32,000 nucleotides of DNA from Telmatocola sphagniphila (GTDB lineage Bacteria > Planctomycetota > Planctomycetia > Gemmatales > Gemmataceae): assembly GCF_018398935.1 (NCBI RefSeq), contig NZ_CP074694.1:4830001-4862000 (forward strand), given 5' to 3'. Positions within the stretch are counted from its first letter, which is position 1. Each line of letters starts with the position of its first letter. This document shows positions 1 through 11,869 of the stretch, piece after piece. Made by a program: the position numbers and the translations under genes. Below the pieces are notes generated by a model. The model searched no databases. It saw only the letters and a program-made list of their open reading frames with translations, and was not told the DNA's origin.

Positions 1-86
1 TCGGATCGAATTTGTTTCGGAGTTGGTGAAAAGTCTCTGCGATTTCTCTTTCTCAGGCACTGGCAAATAGCCAGAGCCGCCCGCCC
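1..86. repeat. Structured-repeat copy 0 (cut by window edge): central module plus short-form hairpin arm
   Basis: 1-57 differs from 893-949 at about 3 positions and from 8929-8985 at a few more. It is followed by the hairpin GCACTGGC-AAATA-GCCAGAG and the terminal box CCGCCCGCC (58-86). Confidence 0.85.
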
Positions 87-208
87 GCGACACTCGATCA
101 ACGACAACTGGCGCGTAAATGGTTCAAACTGTTCCCTTTACGAGGCTAAAAATTAGAGGTAACGGCGTTGAGTGCCGCCCTTCGCCTGGGGATTATTTTG
201 CTAATCAA

Positions 209-541
209 TTATCGGGCTTCGTTCGGAATCGCGATCGAAGGGAAGCCAAAATTCTCGAGTTCACTTTCCTGAAAGGCACTGGAGATAGTCAGTTCATTCA
301 CCATGATTCCTGCCAGAATCAGGGCGTGATATATGGCCTGTACGGAATCATCGCCTTGGGCTGTCTTGAGATCATCTTCGCCAGTGTCGCGAGTTCGTAC
401 ATTACAGGCCCAATAGTTTGATTGACCAACGTTAATGTTTACAGGCATCGATATATCGAGATACGCATAACGAGTAGTCGCGAGATCATCGACCCAAGTA
501 AAAGTCCGAGTACAGAGAAGGGATCCGAAATCGGCAGTCAT
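209..541 (-). CDS. hypothetical protein (coding strand and start uncertain)
   Basis: The minus frame is open for 154 codons (209-673) in AT-rich DNA, with an ATG at 541 (MTADFGSLL...). The plus ORF 119-421 occupies the classic antisense shadow frame, so only one of the two is likely real. No recognisable motifs. Confidence 0.3.
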   Translation of the reverse strand: MTADFGSLLCTRTFTWVDDLATTRYAYLDISMPVNINVGQSNYWACNVRTRDTGEDDLKTAQGDDSVQAIYHALILAGIMVNELTISSAFQESELENFGFPSIAIPNEAR

Positions 542-786
542 AAATGACTCCAAGTTAGAAGAGTAATAAGTATTTTTATTTCTATGGAACAAGAACTGAA
601 ACGAGTGTTCAGGCCCCGACAACACCAGTGGACACAATGTAAGCGATTCCACCAACAACCACGATTGTTCCAACTACAAATTCCGGGATCATTCGTTAAA
701 ATATCCGCAATTTCACTCGCAGTCATTACCGCGAGTTCAACAGCCTCTTGACCAACCTCCACTAGACCCCTAACAGTTGATTTTAC

Positions 787-1029
787 GGCGGCTGCACTGG
801 TAACCAAACTAAATCAACGCATGTCATTATTCAGAAACGTTTTGGGTGGCAATTACTATCTGCCCGTGCCGTTTCGATATAACTCCCGCTTTCGGATCGA
901 ATTTGTTTCGGAGTTGGCGAAAAGTCTCCGAGATTTCTCTTTCTCAGTCACTGGCAGATAGCCAGTGCCACCTAAACCGTTACCTCATAATGATTTGCGG
1001 TGACTCTAAAGGGTTACCAGTGCCACCCG
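787..1029. repeat. Composite structured repeat: L-arm (787-870), central module (871-948), R-arm (949-1029)
   Basis: The arms are imperfect inverted repeats. Termini are CGGCGGCTGCACTGG and CCAGTGCCACCCG. R-arm hairpin is CACTGGC-AGATA-GCCAGTG. The central module is near-identical to 1-57 and 8907-8985. Confidence 0.88.
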
Positions 1030-1179
1030 ACGATAGCGCGTCGCGGTCGCGGTTATCACACGGACGGCGTGTCGAGCGCTATTTGCCCGTAGTTGATCGA
1101 AAGAGACGTCAATTGGTTGAAAGCTTTAGTCAGGAAAGCTATACTTGTTCAACGAAAATGGAAGATCGTTGCGATTACG

Positions 1180-1236
1180 CATTGGCAAATAGCCAATACC
1201 ACCCAAACCTTTACCTGACAATGACTTATGGCGATT
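1180..1236 (+). repeat. Solo, degenerate R-oriented module
   Basis: CATTGGC-AAATA-GCCAATACCACCCAAACCTTTACCTGACAATGACTTATGG aligns with the first ~55 nt of the R-arms at 2131 and 8985. The terminal CCAGTGCCACCC box is missing. Confidence 0.6.
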
Positions 1237-1298
1237 TATAGAGGTTGAGTGCGATTTCCTGCTGCGTGCACATAGCACAAACCCAGAATTGGGATCGA

Positions 1299-1904
1299 AT
1301 GCTGGACACTGTTTACGAAAACTACCGGTTCACCAGAATTGCCCGGGAGTTGTTGCGAAACTCTTCTCGCGAATTCACGATCAACGAACTTCAGCAGAGA
1401 GGATATGTTTCGCGCAGAATTGCCCGCAAGATTTATCACTTCCAAAGTTTACACACTCTTTTTCACTCTTGGAACCTGCGTACTTCCGTTGTTAATGGAA
1501 TTACGGAAGCCATTGAGCTATCGACGAATTCAGACAAGCCGGAAACGACGGACGGCGTGGGAGCCTATGTCTCTTGCTTCTACCTTCTTTATGTGAGCAC
1601 CGAAGCCAACATTGATGTCAATATAATCGATTCCATGAACGCGTTCAAACTCCTGGCGAACTACTGCTTCTTCGCGGAGCATGCGAACTCAAGTCTGCTG
1701 ATGGAATTTCTTGCGATACTCCGAAAGAGGCTTTCTTCGATTAGAAAAAGCGATGCTTCCGACTATCTTTCTGCTTGTGAGCTGTGCCAGGATTTTTTGA
1801 AAAACGGTTCCGTTGATTTCTCAAAAACGGAGGATTCCGATCAATCAGAAATCACCTTCGAACTTCGGAAGCATATGAGAAGACTTATGCAAATTCGTTG
1901 CTAA
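1299..1904 (+). CDS. hypothetical protein (about 201 aa from ATG 1299; ORF open from TTG 1245)
   Basis: Long open frame in AT-rich DNA just downstream of a repeat module. No motif I can assign. Confidence 0.6.
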   Translation: MLDTVYENYRFTRIARELLRNSSREFTINELQQRGYVSRRIARKIYHFQSLHTLFHSWNLRTSVVNGITEAIELSTNSDKPETTDGVGAYVSCFYLLYVSTEANIDVNIIDSMNAFKLLANYCFFAEHANSSLLMEFLAILRKRLSSIRKSDASDYLSACELCQDFLKNGSVDFSKTEDSDQSEITFELRKHMRRLMQIRC

Positions 1905-2130
1905 TGGTTTCGGAAACTGGTTTCGTTTGGGATGACTGTCTGATTAGCGATCAGCTTTCAGCGGTCAGCAAATTGAGGAGGACTGGCTTTGTTTCGGGGG
2001 CCTGTTCCCATACGTGTTTCGACATTACTGTACTTCCCGAAAATTGTTGATGTTTCGTGAGATCAGGGTGGCGCTACTTTTAGAATTGGAAATAGGTCAC
2101 ACGTTATGAAAAGTGGATTGTTTCAATACG

Positions 2131-2213
2131 CACTGGCGGATAGCCAGTGAGACCCAAAACATTACGTGACAATGACTTGCGGTAACTCTAAAGGGTTACC
2201 AGTGCCACCCGCC
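2131..2213 (+). repeat. R-oriented module (long form), preceded by a degenerate central-like segment (about 2020-2130)
   Basis: CACTGGC-GGATA-GCCAGTG...GGGTTACCAGTGCCACCCGCC. About 85% similar to 949-1029 by eye. Confidence 0.85.
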
Positions 2214-2391
2214 GGGACTAAGGTCGAAGATTACTTGCGGCGGTTCAATGCTGTCCCAGGGCGAGATATGGCCAAATACAAAGACATGACATTGCACGTT
2301 GTCGATGAATCTGGCTCTGTGCTGCACCATGGTCCGATTACGTAGTAAATCGCTAAGTCGATCTGACACAAAATGCCGAAAGAGGTTGCTT

Positions 2392-2691
2392 ATGAGTCGT
2401 TATGCTTATCTAGTTTGCGAAGAAACCAAGCATGTGATTTGGCTTGGCAAGATTTATAATGCAGAAGCTATTGGTCGCTACTTTCAAATTGGAGCAGGAG
2501 TTCGAAACTCCGAAAATCCTCTTCTGATGAAGGCAGTGATGAAATTTCTAGCCGAACATCTAGGCAAAACTGTAAGCATCCTTCCCGAGGAGGAGTACGA
2601 TTCAATTCTTGATGAGACCTTCATTGATATAGGAGGCGATGGCCCTCCTGGTATTTCACTTGAAGCTTATATAGAGGATTTTGCTGGTTAA
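2392..2691 (+). CDS. hypothetical protein (99 aa from ATG 2392)
   Basis: ATG at 2392 is preceded by AAGAGG 8 nt upstream. The longer ORF from 2299 has an implausible Cys/Arg-rich leader. No recognisable domain. Confidence 0.6.
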   Translation: MSRYAYLVCEETKHVIWLGKIYNAEAIGRYFQIGAGVRNSENPLLMKAVMKFLAEHLGKTVSILPEEEYDSILDETFIDIGGDGPPGISLEAYIEDFAG

Positions 2692-2800
2692 CGAGATCGG
2701 ATGTCGTGTACAGTAACTTTTATTTATGAGCACTAAGTTCGTGCCTCCGAAGATTTGTCTCAAGCGAAGGATGACAAAAAAAACCAAACCGTGTCGATCG

Positions 2801-3062
2801 CGGCGGGTGGCACTGGCAAGCATTCTCAATCAACGCAAGTCATTAACCAGTAACGGCTTGGGTGGCACTGTCTATCTGACAGTGCCATTGTGAGATAAAG
2901 CGTTCTTCTGGCTCGAATTTGTGCCTGAGATGGTGAAAATTTCTGGCACTTTTTCTCCCACGCACTGGCAGTTAGCCAGTGCCTCCCGGAAATTGGACGA
3001 GGATGGAGTCCTACAATTCACTAAGATGAACAAAAATAGCAGGTGACCAGTGTCACTCGCGG
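2801..3062. repeat. Composite structured repeat: L-arm (2801-2888), divergent central (2889-2962), divergent R-arm (2963-3062)
   Basis: Termini are CGGCGGGTGGCACTGG and CCAGTGTCACTCGCGG. Hairpins are GGCACTGTC-TATCT-GACAGTGCC (L) and GCACTGGC-AGTTA-GCCAGTGC (R). Confidence 0.8.
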
Positions 3063-3110
3063 TCGGATGTGGTTAAAATACTGGTGAAAGCCTCATCCAT
3101 CTCATGAGGA

Positions 3111-3758
3111 GTGCCCGTGCCCGAATCCAGTTCGCAGCCGCAAGCCTTGAGCAAATCCCAAGTCGTTCGACTGTTAATCTGCGTGATCGTGACGGTCATC
3201 TTCGGCTACCTCTACTTTCATTGTTTTAAGATCTGGTTCGGACTGAATTCTGGATTCCAGAGCTATGAGGATAACTGGTACAAGCTTCTCTTCTCTGAAG
3301 AACAGCGTGAGGATTTGCGGATCTATTCCCAGGTGATTTTCTGGTTAAGCTGCGTCTACCTTGCGATAGTAACTCTATTGGCAATTCAACTCTACAGAAA
3401 AGGTTACACGAAATACACCTTGATACGTCGGGGTCTCTATGGCAAGGCACATTCCCTAGTCTTCTTGCTTATGTTGTGGTCCTGTTTCCCCGGATTCGGA
3501 TATTACTTGACCGATGAATATTGTTTTAGGGCCTCGATGGATACCGGAGGCAACCCAGAGATTGTTTCGAAGCTGAATCTCAGTTGGCAAAGAACTTCTC
3601 AATTCATGATGGTGCTGTCGAATTTGCAAATTTCGTTTGTCATCATTTTGATCTGGTGGACGTACGAGGTGCTGCTGATCGTACGGCGTAGTGAAAACGC
3701 GTCTCAATCGAAATTCGGCCATGAGATAGTTCCCTCGGACAAAAGTGGTAGAATTTAA
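3111..3758 (+). CDS. hypothetical multi-pass membrane protein (paralog A)
   Basis: 215-aa ORF with several hydrophobic segments. GTG at 3111 or 3117, with GAGGA at 3106-3110 favouring 3117. Clearly paralogous to the IS-split gene downstream (shared IFW.S..YL......LY.KGY and YY..D.(D/E)Y.F blocks). Confidence 0.7.
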   Translation: MPVPESSSQPQALSKSQVVRLLICVIVTVIFGYLYFHCFKIWFGLNSGFQSYEDNWYKLLFSEEQREDLRIYSQVIFWLSCVYLAIVTLLAIQLYRKGYTKYTLIRRGLYGKAHSLVFLLMLWSCFPGFGYYLTDEYCFRASMDTGGNPEIVSKLNLSWQRTSQFMMVLSNLQISFVIILIWWTYEVLLIVRRSENASQSKFGHEIVPSDKSGRI

Positions 3759-4109
3759 AAGGAGATTTTTTCGAGCCAAATGAGGATAGGCCGTGCCCAA
3801 ATCTACAGCTGAATTCACGACAGCCGAACATGTCAAAATCTATCGGATTTACGTTCTGAGTTTGGCATTTGGAGCGCTTCTCATTTTCGAATATTTCCCG
3901 GACTTCTTCAACCAATTCTTTAATTATTTCGATCAAAAAGAATTTTTGCAGAAGGAGCTGATCTTCACGAAACAGCAACAGGCGAATTTAAAGTTGTTTT
4001 CTGATATAGTCTTCTGGTTCAGCTGGATATATCTTTCAGTACTCCTAATTGGCGGAATTCGACTCTACAAAAAAGGTTACTTTAAACTAAATTGGGTGGG
4101 CGTCTTATG

Positions 4110-4117
4110 TATGTATA
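4110..4117. repeat. Left copy of 8-bp target-site duplication TATGTATA
   Basis: Identical octamer at 5867-5874, directly abutting the inferred IS ends. Confidence 0.7.
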
Positions 4118-5866
4118 GTAGTCGACAATTCCCTGATTTTGGTATTTTCTCGATTTTGCGGATCGGTTAGAAATTGGCAATGGATGCCAAGGAGCAACTC
4201 AAGGAAGATGTCCGGACGGGAAAGGTCAGCACCGATTACCTGATCGACTTGATTTTTTCCCTCCAGAACCAATTGCAAGCAGCTCTCCAAGAAATCGCAG
4301 ACCTCAAAAAGCAAATCGCCTCCTCTCCTACGCCCAAGGTCGCTGAACCGTATTCGATAAAGGCGGAAGAGAAGCGCCAAGAAGCCAAGAATCCGAAAAA
4401 AAAGCGTAAGCAGAAGAATGGCAAGAAACGCGGTCGCATCACCTCGGCGGAAAAGATCGCTCAGGCCGAACGCAGCGAAGCGATTTATCCTGAAGGCCTG
4501 GACAAGAACGCATGTCATTTGTCGCACACTCGACCGGTGTGGCGAGTAGAAAACGGTCGAGCGGTGCTGATCGCCTACCAGATTTATCGGGGCCCTAAAA
4601 ACCGCTACGGCCAAATCCCTGGCGTGATAGGCCGCAGCGAATTCGGCATAGAAATCTTCGTCGAGATTGCTTTCCTGGTCTACACCGTCGGGATGTCATT
4701 CGACAAAGTCTGTCTGTCGCTCCAATTCTTTCAGAATATGACTCTGCGAAAAGCGCAGGTCGATGCGTTGCTGCACCGGTTGTCGCGTCATTGGGAAAAG
4801 GAATTCGATACGCTGTGCACGCTGGTGGCCAACTCATTGGTTGTCTGGACCGATGAGACGGGCTGGAGCTTGAACAGCGTGTGGGCGTTCCTCTCGGAGA
4901 AAGCCCGGATCCTGTTGTTCGGAGTCAACAAGGATGCCGACACGCTGGCGAAAATTCTCGACCCGTCCACGTTCAAAGGTCTGGTGGTCAGCGACGATGC
5001 GGCGGTTTACGGGCACTTCACTCATTCGCAAAAGTGCTGGGCGCACCTGTTGCGGAAGGCCATCAAGCTGACGTTGCTCGAACCGGACAATGCCGAATAC
5101 CGCCGCTTCACCGATCGGTTAATCGAAATCTATCGGAAGGCTGTTCGCGTCAAGCGCGACGGACGACTGGGCGAGGCGGGTCGTCTCCAGAAAATTGCCG
5201 AACTGGAGGACGAGATCGTCGTCTTGTGCAGGCCCCTGTGGTCTCAGAATTTGCCGAAGTTGGCCGGAACGCAAGACGATTATCGCAAGCTGAACAACGA
5301 AATCATGACGCTGGTGATGAGGGAGGAGTTATTCGCGTTCGTGACGACCGAGGAGGTGGAGCAACCCAACGGGGTAACTGTGGAAGTCGGGGCGACGAAC
5401 AACGAAAGCGAACGGACGCTGCGGAAGCCTGCAGAAGCCCGCAAGACGGGCCGGACCAGCAAGTCGCTGTTCGGGGCTCGTCGGCAATCGATTTTGACCA
5501 GCGTGCTGGAATCGCTCCGCTTGTACCTGAAACAGTTCACCTTGGCGAACGTAATCGAAGAGATCAACAGTTGGACCGAGGAAGGGATCAGCTGCTTTAC
5601 GAAATTGTTGAATAAGATGAACTTGTCGCTCCCCAAAATCTCTGTCCTCAATGGACTGTTTCCCAAGGTTGAAGCAGAGCCCAAACTCAAACCAAGCGGG
5701 TAGATAAAAGGTGTCGCCTGTCCTCCTCCAATACAACGGTAAAAACCAGACCCAATCAAGCGCTAAGCAACGAGTTTTCACCTGTGCCGATAACCCATCT
5801 GTCGGCAAATTCAAAAGCCGAGTCAACCTCAGCATGCTCCATGCTGCGCACAGATATTGCGGCTAC
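4118..5866 (+). mobile_element. IS66-family insertion sequence, single-ORF type (1749 bp)
   Basis: Flanked by the 8-bp direct repeat TATGTATA. Imperfect terminal inverted repeats GTAGTCGACAAT / GTAGCCGCAAT. Encodes an IS66-type DDE transposase. Excision restores the host ORF. Confidence 0.82.
4174..5703 (+). CDS. IS66 family transposase
   Basis: 509 aa. N-terminal coiled-coil/Lys-rich region, then WTDETGW, VVSDDAAVYG and QKCWAHLLRK blocks typical of DDE_Tnp_IS66. No tnpA/tnpB-like accessory ORFs. Confidence 0.9.
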   Translation: MAMDAKEQLKEDVRTGKVSTDYLIDLIFSLQNQLQAALQEIADLKKQIASSPTPKVAEPYSIKAEEKRQEAKNPKKKRKQKNGKKRGRITSAEKIAQAERSEAIYPEGLDKNACHLSHTRPVWRVENGRAVLIAYQIYRGPKNRYGQIPGVIGRSEFGIEIFVEIAFLVYTVGMSFDKVCLSLQFFQNMTLRKAQVDALLHRLSRHWEKEFDTLCTLVANSLVVWTDETGWSLNSVWAFLSEKARILLFGVNKDADTLAKILDPSTFKGLVVSDDAAVYGHFTHSQKCWAHLLRKAIKLTLLEPDNAEYRRFTDRLIEIYRKAVRVKRDGRLGEAGRLQKIAELEDEIVVLCRPLWSQNLPKLAGTQDDYRKLNNEIMTLVMREELFAFVTTEEVEQPNGVTVEVGATNNESERTLRKPAEARKTGRTSKSLFGARRQSILTSVLESLRLYLKQFTLANVIEEINSWTEEGISCFTKLLNKMNLSLPKISVLNGLFPKVEAEPKLKPSG

Positions 5867-5874
5867 TATGTATA
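5867..5874. repeat. Right copy of 8-bp target-site duplication TATGTATA
   Basis: Identical to 4110-4117. Confidence 0.7.
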
Positions 5875-6200
5875 TCGTTGCATTGCTCATTGTCTATTAC
5901 ATGCAAATATATTATATGCTAAACGACCGCGACTATTTCTTTGCACATGTAGACAACAAATATTATTCCCTGACAATAAGTGAGCGGAATGGCGAATGGG
6001 GCAAAACACTCCAGCAAATTCGAAAAGCCACGGGATGTATTCTCGGTTCCGTTTGGTTAGCGTTCTGGCTGACCTTCCTAGTCTGGCGGTTCCCTCTGAA
6101 GGAAGAAAATCAGACTTTGCCGGAAACCGTGAGTACCGACCTCTAAGGCTGCGAATGCGATGGGGGTATCCATTTCCTCGTCTACTTCAGAATATTCCTT

Positions 6201-7001
6201 CTATTCCTGTGTCCGAATCTGCGATTTTTGATTCGAACTCTGCCAAGCTTGAAATTGTTCCAAGGTTTCTCGTATTCGGCTGTCGAGTCTCGAGACTGCT
6301 ACCGTTACAATCTCCTCGGGAACGCCGCCATAAAATGCTTCAGCGATGCCACCCGCAATACAAGCCATGGTATCGGCATCACCACCCAGCGAAATTGCAT
6401 TGCGGACTGCGTCTTCGTAACTACTCGATTCCAGAAAAGCGATGATCGACTCCGGAACAGAACCCGCGCAAGAAACATCGAAAATATACCCCGCTCGAAT
6501 CTCTCTCAAGGATCTCGAGAGCTCATAATGAAATGTCGTTTCGATGTACTTCTTTATCTCCGGCTTCGCATGCCCCGTTCGTGCTAAAAATATCGCGGCG
6601 GCCGTGGCCTGGGCACCGACAATCCCTTTGGGATGATTATGCGTTACCTCGGCGGACTCTCTGGCCTTTTCCAAGACCGAATCAAGATCCGAAAAAGCCC
6701 AGGCCACGGGACTGACCCGCATGGCCGAGCCGTTCGCCCAACTGTTGTATGGCTCGCGATTTTTCTGCAGAGCCCAGGAAATAAACATACCGCCATAACC
6801 CGCGTTGGGATATCGCAAGAACCAGCTTTGCAAAGTGTTGATTAAATCACCACCGGTCATCAACCAGTCTGCTACCGCCACGGTTAAAACGGTATCGTCA
6901 GTAAAGCAGGAATGCGGTACGAATAAATCGAACTTCTTGAACTTCGTTCCTTTGCCTTCATGGACGGAACCGATAATATCCCCGACGATTGAACCCAGCA
7001 T
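6201..7001 (-). CDS. ADP-ribosylglycohydrolase family protein
   Basis: 266 aa. GDIIGS..E, CFTDDTVLT and GGDADTMACIAGGIAEAFYG are hallmark ARH/DraG-family metal-site motifs. GGAGG lies 7 nt upstream of the ATG. Confidence 0.9.
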   Translation of the reverse strand: MLGSIVGDIIGSVHEGKGTKFKKFDLFVPHSCFTDDTVLTVAVADWLMTGGDLINTLQSWFLRYPNAGYGGMFISWALQKNREPYNSWANGSAMRVSPVAWAFSDLDSVLEKARESAEVTHNHPKGIVGAQATAAAIFLARTGHAKPEIKKYIETTFHYELSRSLREIRAGYIFDVSCAGSVPESIIAFLESSSYEDAVRNAISLGGDADTMACIAGGIAEAFYGGVPEEIVTVAVSRLDSRIRETLEQFQAWQSSNQKSQIRTQE

Positions 7002-7112
7002 CTCGAATCCTCCCCGTTGGGAAAGGACAACACCAGTGACTAATCTCGGCTTGATTTTACTCGCGAAAGGAACCTGTTAGGTACCTCCGGCCGCCTATCG
7101 AATAATCGAAAG

Positions 7113-7461
7113 CGACGGGTGACACTGGCACCCCATCTCAATAAACGCAAGTCCCTGTACAATCTAGACTTGGGTGGCACTGTCTATCTGACAGTGCCAT
7201 TGAGAAATCCTCGATTTTCAATAACAAAGGACCTCTTTTCAACTCAAAAGAAATTCACGCCCTGGCAGTTCGATTCCTCTCCAATCCCCAGGAAGACCAT
7301 GAACAACTGGCAAATCTTGATCTCGCTTTTCAGAGTCTCCTGGGAGTAAAACTTAGCCGAGGACCACTTCCAATCGGCGGGTGGCGGATAGCCAGCTGGA
7401 CCCAAAACATTACCTGCCAATGACTTACGGTGATTCTAAAAGGGTACCAGTGCCAACCGCC
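7113..7461. repeat. Composite structured repeat: L-arm (7113-7199), ~180-nt spacer, long-form R-arm (7378-7461)
   Basis: The L-arm is nearly identical to 8617-8704, and the spacer aligns with 8705-8880. Termini are CGACGGGTGACACTGG and CCAGTGCCAACCGCCG. Confidence 0.88.
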
Positions 7462-7539
7462 GTCGATTCGAAATATAATTTGATAAGTCGGAATAAGGCC
7501 TTACGATCTGTGTCCAAGGCAACAAACTAGGTAAGTGTT

Positions 7540-8358
7540 ATGATCACAGAGACTTTGTTCTTCAACAGGCAACAAAATACTGGGTGGCATCGTGCCTTTC
7601 TGTCTGAATTTCTTCAAGCTCACGAGATGCGAATTCTCTCTAGAATCGAGTCCACAATTTCTGAAGAGATATTCGAGGAATCGTACCTCGTAGGGTTGCT
7701 CGAAGAGGCAACTATCATCAAGCCTCTCCGACTTAATTTCGACGATATTGAACGTGAAAATCCGAGACTGGAAGCATTTCTAGCATCGCCAAATTCGACA
7801 GGATTTAATTTTTATCCAGGCCACCTGCCAGCGCCTCAACGATACGTAGTCCGATGCAAAATTAAGTATGAAGGCACGGCTGATTTATTGTTGCTCTCCC
7901 CTAGAAATGGCACCTCAGTCTTGCCTGTAGGTCGAATCGATGGGAATAAGATTCTATTCGATCTTCCACTACCAGTGGATATGTCAAAAAAGAAACAGTT
8001 TGAACATGATCTAAATCAGCGTAAAGAGGCTTTTCGCAAATACTCTGAATTCGCTAACGAAGATCTCTTCATTTCGCAAAGAGGTCTTAGCCAGAGAATC
8101 AAGGTCTGTTATGAGTCGAAATTCACAGAGTTGCATGCAGTATATGGCTTAATAAATTCCCCAGGACTAAAATTGTCAGAGGTTAGGCAGCCATCCCAAC
8201 CAAATGGATCCCAACCGTTTACAAAGAATGCTTTTGAGCCTCAACCCTCACAAGTTATCGTGAATAATATCACTGTGATTTACAATACTATTGAAAAGTT
8301 TTTTAAAATTGATCAGACAAACAACACCTCGGGGGGAGATGTGAATAATGCATATTAA
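7540..8358 (+). CDS. hypothetical protein (272 aa), probably the 5' part of a frameshifted longer gene
   Basis: Long ORF with ATG start. It ends 8 codons after the peptide repeat DQTNNTSGGDVNN, which recurs in the next ORF in a different frame. Confidence 0.65.
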   Translation: MITETLFFNRQQNTGWHRAFLSEFLQAHEMRILSRIESTISEEIFEESYLVGLLEEATIIKPLRLNFDDIERENPRLEAFLASPNSTGFNFYPGHLPAPQRYVVRCKIKYEGTADLLLLSPRNGTSVLPVGRIDGNKILFDLPLPVDMSKKKQFEHDLNQRKEAFRKYSEFANEDLFISQRGLSQRIKVCYESKFTELHAVYGLINSPGLKLSEVRQPSQPNGSQPFTKNAFEPQPSQVIVNNITVIYNTIEKFFKIDQTNNTSGGDVNNAY

Positions 8359-8530
8359 CCAAACAAACAATACCTCGGGAGGAGATGTGAACAATAACTT
8401 CTCTTTCGAAGGAAATTCTGTCCAAAGCCAAGGCGATCATAGCAAGATCGAGATCCAAAAAGAGGAAGGGCTTGTCGAGAGTATCAAGAAAATATTTCGC
8501 TCGATTAAGGCATTCTTTGGTAAGAAGTAG
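8348..8530 (+). CDS. hypothetical protein (60 aa), or the 3' part of the preceding gene after a +1 shift
   Basis: Starts at ATG 8348 and overlaps the upstream stop by 11 nt. Begins with INQTNNTSGGDVNN (second copy of the repeat) and ends in the cationic amphipathic tail SIKKIFRSIKAFFGKK. Confidence 0.45.
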   Translation: MHINQTNNTSGGDVNNNFSFEGNSVQSQGDHSKIEIQKEEGLVESIKKIFRSIKAFFGKK

Positions 8531-8616
8531 TCTCGAAATCTTCGAGCTTGGATATCAAAAATACAAACTATTTCGCGATACGTTTTTTCTTATCTTCTCC
8601 AGGCTGGCTAGCATCA

Positions 8617-9068
8617 CCGCGGGGTGACACTGGCATCCCATCTCAATAAACGCAAGTCCCTGTACAATCTAGACTTGGGTGGCACTGTCTATCTGACAGT
8701 GCCATTTAGAAATCATCGATTTTCAACAACAAATCACCCTATTTCAACCCAGAAGGAATTCACGCCCCTGAAAGTCGTACCCACGCCAATCTCCAGGAAG
8801 ACCATGAAAACTGGCAAATCTTGATCTCGCTCTTCCGGACTTTGCTGTGTGTAAAACTTGGCCGAGGACCACTTCCAATCGTTGGGGTAGCAGATAGCCA
8901 CCCGCCGTTTCGATATAACTCTCGCTTTCGGATCGAATTTGTTTCGAAGTTGGCGAAAACTCTCTCTGATTTCTCTTTCTCAGGCACGGGCAGATAGCCA
9001 GTGCCATCCAAAACATTACCTGACAATGACTTACGGAGATTGTTTCGGTGCATCAGTGCCTTTGCCAC
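8617..9068. repeat. Composite structured repeat: L-arm (8617-8704), spacer, short-form arm (8881-8906), central module (8907-8984), degenerate R-arm (8985-9068)
   Basis: 8617-8880 aligns with 7113-7377. 8907-8985 aligns with 871-949. The R-arm is CACGGGC-AGATA-GCCAGTGCCATCCAAAACATTACCTGACAATGACTTACGG. Confidence 0.85.
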
Positions 9069-9898
9069 ACAACTCACTTTGCCAGTCACTCCTCTCTCGA
9101 TTACTCTACAGCGTGCAGGGAATCGGTCCATTTCAGGATTACAAAAGCCTGCACGCGAGCTTCGTCAGTTCGATCCTCGCAGTGATCCTACCAGCAGTTC
9201 AGAACTTTCCAGAAAGGGAGGTCATCGATTGGGTTCAAAATCGGTTTACGACGAATCACCCCAAAACAGGCGTATTTCCCAAGAAATAACCTAAGGTCAT
9301 CAAAATCGCGTTTTCCACTATGTGAAAAATGATGATCTGATGACCTCTCTAGGGAAATCCCGGAAAGAAAGGCCCTTCTTGACCCCAAAATGTCCGGAAT
9401 TTCTGAGATATCTCGTCAAAATCGAAGTGTCGTATGCACTCTAGATCACTGAGGAATCCACACGAAGCTTTTCTTGGTCTCCGGGCTCGCCGTGAGTGTT
9501 CCAACCGCCCCAAATTGCAACAGTTCCTGGAGTTCCCAATCGCGGTGAATTCCAGCGGTCGTCCCTCGGCAACGAAAAAGCGGAACCGGTCCTCAAGCTC
9601 CAACGGAATTGATCGATCTGATGCAACGCCGTCCTCCCGAGTGAATTTCAGTGATCACAAATAGCCCTATCGTCGCTGACTGGCATCCAGGAAAGATCAC
9701 TCTCTTCCGGTACGAACGGCCTCGGAAACTTCGGCCCGTTAGCACTCTCGAAGGATTTTCTTTATCGCCCTCAACCTTGAGCCCCGGCTTAAAATCACTC
9801 GCCGGGCACACTCCGGCGCCTAAAATCACTTACAGGCAGTAGCGAGAGCGGATTCGTTATCCCATCGAGATTTTCAATTCCGATACTTAGGCTTTTCC

Positions 9899-11869
9899 AT
9901 GCTGGTAGGTCAGACCATCGGTGAAGGTGACAAGTCGCTGTACATTGAGAAAGAACTCGGCAGCGGGGCCATGGGCTCCGTTTTCCGGGCTCGCTTTCTC
10001 AAGGACAACACGCTGACGGCCCTGAAAGTCATCGCCTTCGGTCTGGCCGACAACGAAACCGCCCGGGCCCGCTTCGACCGCGAGGCCAAAATCCTCAAAC
10101 AGCTCAAGCACCCTAACATCACCCGCTACTACGGCAGCGGCCACATTCGCAAAACGCCGTTTTTCATGATGGAATACGTCGAAGGGGAATCGCTCGATCA
10201 CCTGCTCGAGCGGCGCGGCAAACTCCCCTGGGAAGACGTGGTCATCTTCGGCAAGCAGCTGGCGGCCGCTCTCGAGCACGCGCACGAAAAAGGGATCATC
10301 CATCGCGATCTGAAGCCCTCGAACATCATGCTCACCAAGGGGGGCACGGTCAAGCTGACCGACTTCGGGATCGCCAAGGATGTCGATCTGACTGCGCTCA
10401 CCGGAGCCAACAACACCATCGGCACCGCCGCTTACATGTCGCCCGAACAATGCCGGGGAGAACGCAACCTCGGCCCCAAATCGGATATCTATTCGTCCGG
10501 GGTGGTTTTCTACGAACTGCTCACCGGCCGAAAGCCCTTCGTCCGGGAAACCTCCATCGATCTGTTCATGGCGCATGTGAACGATCCTTTCGAGCGTCCC
10601 AGTCGGCTCGTTCCCAACCTGCCGATGTGGCTGGATACGCTCGTCTGCCAGATGCTGGAAAAGAAGCCGGAATTCCGACCGCTGGACGCCGCGACGGTGG
10701 GCCGGGCGCTCCAGGAAATCGAAGATAAAGTCGCTTCGCATAAGAGTGTGGGGGCGGAAGTGGCCAACGCCCGGGTGATCGACCGAATTCAGATGACTTC
10801 GCCGCCGGATGAATCGGATCGGGAAGCCACCCGGGTCATTCGATCTTCTTCCAAAAAGAAGAAGGTCAAAAAGAAAACCATCCCCTTTTATCGCAAGCTC
10901 TGGTTTGCGCTAACTCTCATTGGCCTGTTCGTGATCGGAGCCGGGATCGGCCTCTACCTGGTAACGCGGCCTGGCGATCCCAAGATCGCTTTCAACCAGG
11001 CGATGGAAGAAAAGGACGAGGCCACCAAGGAGCAATTGCTCAGCGCTTATCTCAAACGGCAATCCGGTAACAAGGATGCCGACTGGCAGCGCGCCAATGA
11101 TGAGTTGTTCGGCCTGAAGGCCAAGAAGATCGATCAGGCGATGTGGAATCGCGTTCGGGCGAAACGGCTGAACCCGGAAGAGGAATACGACAAGCAGGCG
11201 TATGCGCTGGTTATGCAGGGCTACAAACTCGAAGCGGAGGGTAACACCAACGGCGCGCTCGAACAATGGATCGATCTGGAGAAGAACTGGGTGAAACAGG
11301 AGAACGAAGAGCTAGCTCTCTGGGGCTGGATCGGCCGCCGTCATAAGCAATTGATAAGCGAGGCCGACGGTCTGGAAAAGAGGATGCTCGCCACTCTGCT
11401 GAGGGCCCGGGTCGATGAGGAGGAAGCGACACTCGAAGGCGACGACACCAAGCGAACCTACGAAGCCCTGCGACTCGAACTTCTTGGCGATTTACGCGCC
11501 GAGCTGAGCGAAGATAAAAAAGGGCCCGTCGGCGATCTGGCGGGGGCGAAGCAGGCCTGGAAATCCCTGCGTGACGATCGGGAAAAGGATAAGCCGATCG
11601 ATCAGCGCGTTTACTTGATTCTGGCCGCCCGTCATTTCCGCGATCTCGATCCGCAAAAAGCTTCCGAAGCGACCCCGGAACAGCGCGAAGAGATGGTCCG
11701 CGGCTTGCTGAAGTGGGCCCTCTCCGTTCAGAAATCGGAGAATCTCATCGTACTTCGGGATATGCGCAATACACTTCGGGATATTCGCGACCTCTACAAA
11801 AATGCCCCCTCCCCGCTCGATAAAATCGCTATCGAAGCGGATAGCGAACTGCGTAAACTCAAAAAATAA
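9899..11869 (+). CDS. Serine/threonine protein kinase with TM segment and helical-repeat C-terminal region
   Basis: 656 aa. GSGAMGSVF glycine loop, ALKVI lysine, HRDLKPSNIML, DFGIAK, SPEQ. Hydrophobic segment LWFALTLIGLFVIGAGIGLYLV after a Lys-rich linker. Confidence 0.92.
   Translation: MLVGQTIGEGDKSLYIEKELGSGAMGSVFRARFLKDNTLTALKVIAFGLADNETARARFDREAKILKQLKHPNITRYYGSGHIRKTPFFMMEYVEGESLDHLLERRGKLPWEDVVIFGKQLAAALEHAHEKGIIHRDLKPSNIMLTKGGTVKLTDFGIAKDVDLTALTGANNTIGTAAYMSPEQCRGERNLGPKSDIYSSGVVFYELLTGRKPFVRETSIDLFMAHVNDPFERPSRLVPNLPMWLDTLVCQMLEKKPEFRPLDAATVGRALQEIEDKVASHKSVGAEVANARVIDRIQMTSPPDESDREATRVIRSSSKKKKVKKKTIPFYRKLWFALTLIGLFVIGAGIGLYLVTRPGDPKIAFNQAMEEKDEATKEQLLSAYLKRQSGNKDADWQRANDELFGLKAKKIDQAMWNRVRAKRLNPEEEYDKQAYALVMQGYKLEAEGNTNGALEQWIDLEKNWVKQENEELALWGWIGRRHKQLISEADGLEKRMLATLLRARVDEEEATLEGDDTKRTYEALRLELLGDLRAELSEDKKGPVGDLAGAKQAWKSLRDDREKDKPIDQRVYLILAARHFRDLDPQKASEATPEQREEMVRGLLKWALSVQKSENLIVLRDMRNTLRDIRDLYKNAPSPLDKIAIEADSELRKLKK

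Follow-up and report, generated by a model that had tools for sequence, protein, structure and literature searches.

The stretch of DNA analysed here (the window) covers 32 kb of the 6.59-Mb genome of Telmatocola sphagniphila (Gemmataceae, Planctomycetota), and its first 9 kb hold the family of palindromic intergenic DNA repeats that is our subject. The GC content was 43–52% at positions 1–9300 and 51–61% over the remaining window. The low-GC part (≈ 45% GC) carries several small orphan genes, genes for a DUF6968 protein, an ADP-ribosylglycohydrolase and a protein resembling the PADLOC candidate PDC-S54, and a tandem pair of membrane-protein paralogues, one of which contains an IS66-family element. 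It adjoins core genes of 55–58% GC downstream, namely a Ser/Thr kinase gene, hemL and others. The hemL product matched WP_246539349.1 exactly, and a 272-aa product of the low-GC part matched QVL31008.1 exactly. The kinase–hemL pair is kept in Tuwongella immobilis and in a Gemmataceae metagenome-assembled genome (loci L154 and L155). At this locus both relatives have ordinary large genes upstream of the pair, with neither the low-GC region nor its repeats; the repeat-bearing region is therefore a lineage-specific accessory island. The island looks foreign, and we infer that it was acquired horizontally. Because the closest homologues of the neighbouring kinase were only 47% identical, there were no orthologous filled and empty sites to compare. 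Within the 9-kb island, repeats occupied nearly all intergenic gaps that measured 100 nt or more; no gap in the adjacent 23 kb held one.

Two-armed repeat units

The initial annotation had described twelve copies of a hairpin-plus-box module at 1–9068. All twelve were present, at or within a few bases of where they had been placed, as judged from repeat families, inverted pairs and alignment. Ten were full copies (≈ 85–95 nt) and two were short. The family is real and not a product of chance: the 11-nt box CCAGTGCCACC was seen 12 times with at most one mismatch versus 0.43 expected (0 of 100 shuffles reached 12), the hairpin pattern was seen nine times with at most three mismatches versus 0.02 expected, and profile scores were strong. 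A search of the window with an nhmmer profile built from the copies recovered the ten full copies (60–98 bits; E 1e-17 to 1e-30) and the short copy at 58–86 (E 6e-07). The short copy at 8881–8906 was not significant (E 4.8) and is recognisable by eye only. The profile found zero copies in 9100–32000. A weak hairpin-like match was seen at 266–295 on the plus strand (GGCACTGGAGATAGTCAGT, profile E 0.023), inside the DUF6968 gene (209–541, minus strand); either this match is due to chance, or the gene has taken up a decayed copy.

The copies had been viewed as modules lying in both orientations. They are better described as arms of a larger unit with one facing. This repeating unit is a two-armed imperfect palindrome of 190–350 nt, composed of a left (L) arm, a centre of 75–78 or 178 nt and a right (R) arm, the two arms being differentiated. 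Every L arm is followed by an R arm 75–180 nt further on. There are five or six L–centre–R units plus lone R arms, and orientation is uniform throughout, including the lone arms R2131, R8985 and R1180 (the last with a remnant partner). The arms of one unit are inverted relative to each other and share a 16-nt terminal match, so the proposal that opposed copies combine into long palindromes was borne out. A further L arm was present 23 nt upstream of the window, at −78 to −23, in a Logan contig (L158) reaching 79 nt past the window start. Its position upstream of the centre at 1–57 means that the array extends upstream of the window.

Read in the R orientation, an arm starts at its 5′ end with a few conserved bases (CAAT or ATAC). 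The hairpin comes next, with a 7–10-bp stem GGCACTG(G/T)C, the loop AGATA and the return arm G(C/A)CAGTGCC. It is followed by ACCCAA and a moderately conserved 40-nt stretch (...AATGACTTGCG..GAT...). A second direct copy of the box forms the outer edge together with the terminal CGCCG, where similarity stops. The hairpin is located at the inner arm edge, and box 1 is its 3′ stem arm. Box 1 and box 2 are 55 nt apart in seven of the eight full copies and 72 nt apart in R2963, which has a 17-nt insertion. That each module carries the box twice in direct orientation holds for most copies, but in R1180 and R8985 the outer box has decayed. Both arm boundaries are sharp. The two hairpins of a unit have their AGATA loops on opposite strands, inside the long inverted arms. 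Centres are of two types: a leader type of 75–78 nt, at 1–57, 871–948 and 8907–8984 with a diverged copy at 2889–2962, and a 178-nt type at 7200–7377 and 8705–8880. Frame-shifting indels indicate that the centres are non-coding.

The window opens with the right part of unit C0 (1–86, plus strand), found both as a repeat family and with the profile. It consists of leader centre (1–54) and a short R arm (55–86), in which GGCACTGGC-AAATA-GCCAGAGCC is joined straight to the terminal GCCCGCC, the stretch from box 1 to box 2 being deleted. In C1, the L arm L787 (786–877, minus strand; 83.5 bits) has a degenerate hairpin and clusters with the other L arms. Its leader centre of ≈ 78 nt (871–948, plus strand) is homologous to those at 1–57 and 8907–8984 and ≈ 75% identical to that of C2. 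The R arm, R949 (942–1032, plus strand), has the stem CACTGGC-AGATA-GCCAGTG, box 1 at 962–972, box 2 at 1017–1027 and the terminus CGACG. A degenerate unit, C1b, follows: the remnant of an L-arm hairpin half (1078–1102, minus strand; weak, E 0.9) is the partner of R1180 (1173–1263, plus strand; 74.7 bits), a degenerate R arm whose stem has undergone a C-G to T-A double change and which has lost the outer box. R2131 (2124–2214, plus strand) is a lone R arm whose homology ends ≈ 6 nt 5′ of the hairpin. C2 consists of L2801 (2800–2895, minus strand; 98.4 bits) with a perfect 10-bp stem (TGGCACTGTC/GACAGTGCCA), the diverged leader centre (2889–2962, plus strand) and R2963 (2956–3062, plus strand; 59.9 bits), the most diverged copy.

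The two remaining units share the longer centre. In C3, L7113 (7112–7206, minus strand) is 95% identical to L8617, and the non-coding centre (7200–7377, plus strand) is offset by frame-shifting indels relative to its C4 counterpart. The R arm of C3, R7378 (7371–7462, plus strand), has the 5′ stem arm GGGTGGC in common with R8881 and is 78% identical to R2131. C4 starts with L8617 (8616–8711, minus strand), identified by the profile and by arm identities, and continues with its 178-nt centre (8705–8880, plus strand; repeat alignments of 88%, 81% and 96%). It ends in the short R arm R8881 (8875–8906, plus strand), in which GGGGTAGC-AGATA-GCCA is joined to CCCGCCG by a box 1–box 2 deletion. An element without an L arm (8907–9068, plus strand; 86.4 bits) directly abuts the outer end of C4; it comprises the leader centre at 8907–8984 and R8985 (8978–9068) and is 83% identical to 868–1024.

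A Logan short-read assembly of the same strain (SRR14506984; contigs L121, L123, L131 and L158) splits the island into 1–2-kb contigs. It breaks within modules at ≈ 938, 2886, 7139, 7193 and 8651, and also at ≈ 5837, near the right end of the IS66 element (≈ 5860–5876). The repeats inside the island could by themselves explain these breaks.

Hairpin conservation and arm boundaries

Across the aligned copies, 82% of cells in the 9–10-bp AGATA hairpin pair, and six of its ten base-pairs show changes on both sides. On four of five measures none of 500 shuffles reached the observed value, and 21 of 500 did so on the fifth. Slid controls paired in 28–42% of cells. RNAalifold predicted the AGATA hairpin as the only helix. 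As first proposed, the hairpin has been kept through changes on both sides with its loop conserved, and three L copies do carry the G-C to T-A double change in their stems. Few independent double changes occur in the stem: L and R arms differ by G-C/T-A, R1180 has one such change and the chimeric R7378 has several. What covariation there is consists largely of a constant difference between L and R arms together with two single-copy events, which is too thin for a structured RNA.

A second helix had been suggested from an exchange of G-C at 979/1004 for A-T at 7409/7434. The exchange exists, but across the copies the helix lacks support: pairing occurs in 74% of cells, much of it as G-U, and the helix is missing from the RNAalifold prediction. 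The folds of single arms are only slightly more stable than those of shuffles (z about −1.6 to −2.2), L7113 being the exception (z −4.7 on one strand and −5.3 on the other). Folding of whole units gives long hairpins, with z −9.1 for C1 and −4.0 for C2.

We found no consistent target-site duplication at the complete units C1 to C4. The best matches were 3–4 nt long with variable offsets, and the flank matches were equalled by 9% of random flank pairs.

Arms of one type are related to each other. The L arms are 64–95% identical among themselves, and R949, R2131 and R7378 are mutually 73–80% identical, whereas partners of one unit are only 57–64% identical. Diagnostic positions separate the types (TGCGTTGAT in L arms versus (G/A)CGGTGAT in R arms). 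Since arms resemble those of the same type more than their own partner, the L–centre–R unit with its differentiated ends was copied as a whole. R7378 is chimeric: its 5′ stem arm and left flank are as in R8881, and from the loop onwards in the 3′ direction it is closest to R2131. This chimerism across the hairpin marks the hairpin as a homology breakpoint. The inner contexts that adjoin the arms are of no fewer than three unrelated kinds, homology stopping at the hairpin base, and in lone R arms homology ends a few bases 5′ of the hairpin. The short forms (58–86 and 8881–8906) represent two independent, precise deletions between box 1 and box 2. Tandem units are also present, and the lone R arms and box-to-box deletion forms are products of unit decay.

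Relatives, candidate enzymes and cargo genes

The repeats had originally been matched to no named repeat or RNA family. Rfam indeed gave no match, either at gathering thresholds over the whole window or at E ≤ 1 in 1–9900, and the literature searched gave none. The family is unnamed, but its kind is recognisable among REPIN/BIME repeats, miniature inverted-repeat transposable elements (MITEs) and attC-like sites. A search of JGI metagenome contigs for the two-box pattern gave six matches, all of them unrelated coding repeats or a chance repeat. The latter (contig Ga0314816_1003931, L129, positions 121–195) is a perfect 22-nt direct repeat, GGCATAGCCAGTGCCACCCAGC, with its copies 53 nt apart; it shares the box and nothing else with the modules, and we judged it coincidental. 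Searches of viral contigs and plasmids found no related repeats. A scan of a genome collection used a 17-nt hairpin pattern, which was too short; the 120 matches listed were all chance, and the scan was uninformative. Module-spanning open reading frames (ORFs) used as protein queries (six-frame concatenate, HMMER and exact look-ups) had no match in predicted proteins, so the modules are not conserved coding sequence. Stops and frameshifts likewise led us to reject a coding repeat; frame a is stopped in R2131 and in the L copies.

Scanning of the ORFs across 1–9900 detected no recombinase domain, and PF01797 (RAYT/Y1 transposase) had no match in the window. On the minus strand of the 178-nt centres (7244–7420 and 8734–8901), the peptide ...(P)DWKWSSAKFY...FMVFL.IG can be read in frames that are mutually shifted. 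The DWKWSSAKFY segment resembles the C-terminal DYPWSSY motif of RAYT-like tyrosine transposases and is a lead at most. The TIRtron motif GGGGWSAS fits one of ten outer ends and is hence not evidence. Sigma-54 or sigma-70 promoters and intrinsic terminators were also considered and rejected: promoter-like sites (13 versus 11.8) and terminator-like sites (14 versus 9.9) in the modules were no commoner than in shuffles, and TGGCAC occurs without a correctly spaced GC element.

The plus-strand genes at 1245, 2392, 3111 and 7540 lie 50–180 nt downstream of R arms, and the minus-strand genes at 541 and 7001 each have an L arm upstream. The first membrane-protein paralogue (3111–3758) is intact. The second is split by a single-ORF IS66-family element (4108–5876; transposase 4174–5703; inverted ends at ≈ 4110–4124 and ≈ 5860–5874) into flanking parts at 3793–4170 and 5784–6146, which matched the intact copy with E 2e-12 (N-terminal part) and E 5e-03 (C-terminal part). 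The 272-aa product (region 7540–8530) matched PDC-S54 with E 6.7e-11 over profile positions 9–223 of 410 only. A 42-nt near-tandem duplication (8308–8349 and 8354–8395) covers its stop codon and the start of the next ORF, of 60 aa. The two were probably one longer gene that the duplication split.

A proposed mobile DNA family and its alternatives

The repeats are most likely mobile or recombination-site DNA rather than RNA genes. Our preferred reading, which we hold tentatively, is that they are non-autonomous mobile or recombining DNA of a REPIN/BIME/MITE-like type, recognised through the hairpin. While the DNA is transiently single-stranded, an enzyme encoded elsewhere in the genome would recognise hairpin and box on one of its strands and would cut and rejoin at the arm boundaries, in the mode of the HUH tyrosine transposases that act with repetitive extragenic palindromes (REPs), REPINs and IS200/IS605 ends. 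Cutting and joining of a single strand at the arm edges would explain the missing flanking duplications, the uniform orientation and the breakpoints at the hairpin. Units would accumulate between the small orphan genes of the island and promote its rearrangement, probably both. This reading draws on the conserved pairing and loop, the lack of a target-site duplication at four complete units and their single facing. It also draws on the long-hairpin folds of whole units, the copying of units with both their ends, the homology breaks at the hairpin, and the lone arms, tandem units and box-to-box deletions, which are decay products typical of families of this kind. There are precedents. RAYT-like transposase genes can be flanked by long inverted repeats, some of them partly self-complementary; some of these repeats form moderately abundant families that occur as dimers or clusters, and a planctomycete has many such genes with flanking repeats (Di Nocera et al. 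2013, PMC3733652).

Several observations weigh against our preference. The window holds no transposase or recombinase fit for these ends, the IS66 element being unrelated, and a transposase remnant at DWKWSSAKFY found no support in Pfam, NCBIfam, the PDB or the protein database. Dispersal, the main signature of mobility, is unproven from the 32 kb examined. No relatives emerged from the metagenome, viral and plasmid searches or from predicted protein sets. The REP tags GTAG and CGTC are absent beside the hairpin. Finally, the clustering is extreme, and the near-saturation of the island gaps fits cassette boundaries better than random insertion.

The likeness to REP, BIME and REPIN repeats, and to TIRtrons, lies first in a short imperfect palindromic core, here a 23–25-nt hairpin. 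As with REPs, BIMEs and REPINs, head-to-head pairs form larger hairpin dimers, linkers are conserved and of few types, and copies are clustered, non-coding and intergenic, without target-site duplications. The arrangement of a REPIN dimer is present in five or six L–R pairs with hairpins 75–178 nt apart, which fold as given above. Long inverted repeats, some of them partly self-complementary, are likewise known around RAYT-like genes, planctomycete ones included (PMC3733652). A canonical REP is a 20–40-nt palindrome tagged with GTAG or CGTC (PMC3733652); here the four bases flanking the stem are CAAT, AAAT, ATAC, TTAC, CCAC, TCAG or AAAC on one strand and GGGT on the other. Unlike a REP or REPIN, the arm measures 85–95 nt and has a second box 55 nt away, the linkers are 75–178 nt long, and no RAYT gene was found in the window. 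REPs and REPINs are spread genome-wide, in tens to hundreds of extragenic copies with a cognate RAYT gene between repeats, whereas the copies seen in the 32 kb lie in one island. Palindromic elements derived from IS200/IS605 differ in having subterminal hairpins at both ends on the same strand and no inverted repeats, whereas here both hairpins and arms are inverted.

The main alternative, which we consider doubtful, would make the units attC-like recombination sites in a cassette array similar to an integron, with the recombinase encoded at the unseen upstream end. The palindrome would fold, a site-specific recombinase would recognise it, and gene cassettes would be captured, excised or shuffled. 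The setting speaks for this. Units separate genes in an AT-richer island that is absent from the kinase–hemL locus of T. immobilis and the other Gemmataceae genome, its cargo consists of small orphan genes together with the DUF6968, ADP-ribosylglycohydrolase and PDC-S54-like genes, and the array continues upstream. This alternative accounts better than our preferred reading for the filling of nearly all island gaps and of none outside, for the island context and for the polarity (one facing without flanking duplications). Integron attC sites and their cassette arrays, CALIN included, are likewise imperfect palindromes that fold as single strands, and likewise face the same way between small, mostly same-facing orphan genes of atypical GC, without boundary duplications.

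The sites themselves do not resemble attC. In an attC site, the complementary cores R″ (RYYYAAC) and R′ (GTTRRRY) lie 50–150 nt apart, with paired L″/L′ boxes; no core pair of this kind was found on either strand of 1–9100 (0 versus a shuffle mean of 0.64). At 190–350 nt, the units exceed the usual attC length (57–141 nt in the IntegronFinder paper, PMC4889954) by a factor of two to three, and a hairpin and a box repeat lie inside each individual arm. No recombinase was found among the scanned ORFs, nor was IntI, which heads an integron array. Integron sites all lie on one strand and separate mostly single promoterless ORFs; here some "cassettes" would be multi-gene, and one interval of 4 kb holds three or four genes with no internal site. 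The lone arms and tandem units resemble the decay of selfish repeats, and new integron-like systems are rare a priori. We place slightly less weight still on the claim that the island is a new gene-capture array in Planctomycetota, an independently evolved integron analogue with single-strand-folded, non-attC sites built from hairpin plus direct box and with an uncharacterised recombinase at the unseen head.

A precedent for such arrays without IntI is given by the rAID-1 clusters of Bacteroidales, which combine a XerD-like recombinase, skewed GC and repetitive intergenic sequences (bioRxiv 10.1101/471110). The island shares with these arrays of immunity genes the small accessory genes, the skewed GC and the repeated intergenic sequences. 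It differs from them in that no recombinase was found in the scanned ORFs, the repeat sequences are unrelated, and the cargo, except the ADP-ribosylglycohydrolase, is not recognisable as immunity genes. The pdif modules of Acinetobacter plasmids are bounded by 28-bp sites (11-6-11) whose orientation alternates around each module. The hairpins alternate in the same way here, but the arms measure 90 nt and the repeat sequences are unrelated.

We regard it as unlikely that the units are cut-and-paste MITEs derived from a DDE transposon, with ends of ≈ 90 nt that carry two direct and one inverted transposase-binding boxes, as in inverted-repeat/direct-repeat (IR-DR), Tn7-like or IS21-like ends. 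Left and right ends are differentiated, the terminal inverted repeats are long with a 16-nt terminal match, and the constant box spacing (seven of eight full copies) corresponds to about five helical turns. Bacterial MITEs such as Correia/NEMIS, ERIC, RUP and Nezha are, like the present units, non-coding and intergenic, with terminal inverted repeats and strong folding, and the 190–350-nt units form subfamilies that share their ends and differ in their cores. The inverted repeats, size and non-coding nature are those of a classical MITE, but no unit has a target-site duplication. The uniform facing would be improbable for independent insertions, with a chance of roughly 0.4–3% depending on the number counted as independent. 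A double-stranded binding site needs no stem complementarity, yet complementarity was kept through change, and the lone arms end sharply at the hairpin on their inner side. MITE inverted repeats are moreover 15–30 nt long, compared with ≈ 90 nt here, and the present clustering is extreme.

A role at the RNA level, in which the repeats are hairpins of untranslated regions (stabilising, terminating or protein-binding), a role suggested for many REPs, or else operators of one regulator, appears improbable. The placement of R arms shortly upstream of plus-strand genes and of two L arms upstream of minus-strand genes would suit it, as would the hairpin double changes, and in two copies a −35-like hexamer within box 2 lies 18 nt from a −10-like one in the flank. 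Two other L arms, however, face away from any gene that they could serve. Rfam gave no match at E ≤ 1, one short helix is the only one supported, no T-tract follows the hairpin, and, as noted above, promoter-like and terminator-like sites are not enriched. Operators of a regulon would not share 95 nt plus a centre of 75–178 nt.

We give equally little credence to the units being passive relics of local segmental duplication and unequal recombination in the island, with no present function or mobility. In its favour, all known copies lie inside 9.2 kb, larger duplicated blocks include repeats (868–1024 with 8904–9060; 7117–7381 with 8622–8886), and the indel-to-mismatch ratio of the arms (0.062) is no lower than that of the centres (0.067–0.069), so that an indel deficit cannot be taken to indicate length constraint. 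Against it, the genes between units are unrelated, so that duplication would have to have copied the units alone, stem pairing and loop are conserved at 50–80% overall identity, and the arms are sharply bounded on both sides.

A structured palindromic repeat of intergenic DNA is of a known kind, but this family lacks a defining feature of each named class. The design of its arms is unusual, and their deployment is cassette-like. Should the units prove mobile, they would form the first REPIN/MITE-like family to be described from a Gemmataceae planctomycete, and the combination of a hairpin at the inner edge with a repeated box at the outer edge would point to an uncharacterised transposase specificity. 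If they are cassette boundaries, integron-like gene capture would have arisen with entirely different sites in a phylum whose accessory-gene dynamics have barely been studied. The repeats also fragment short-read assemblies of this genome, and they mark an accessory island that carries a candidate defence gene.

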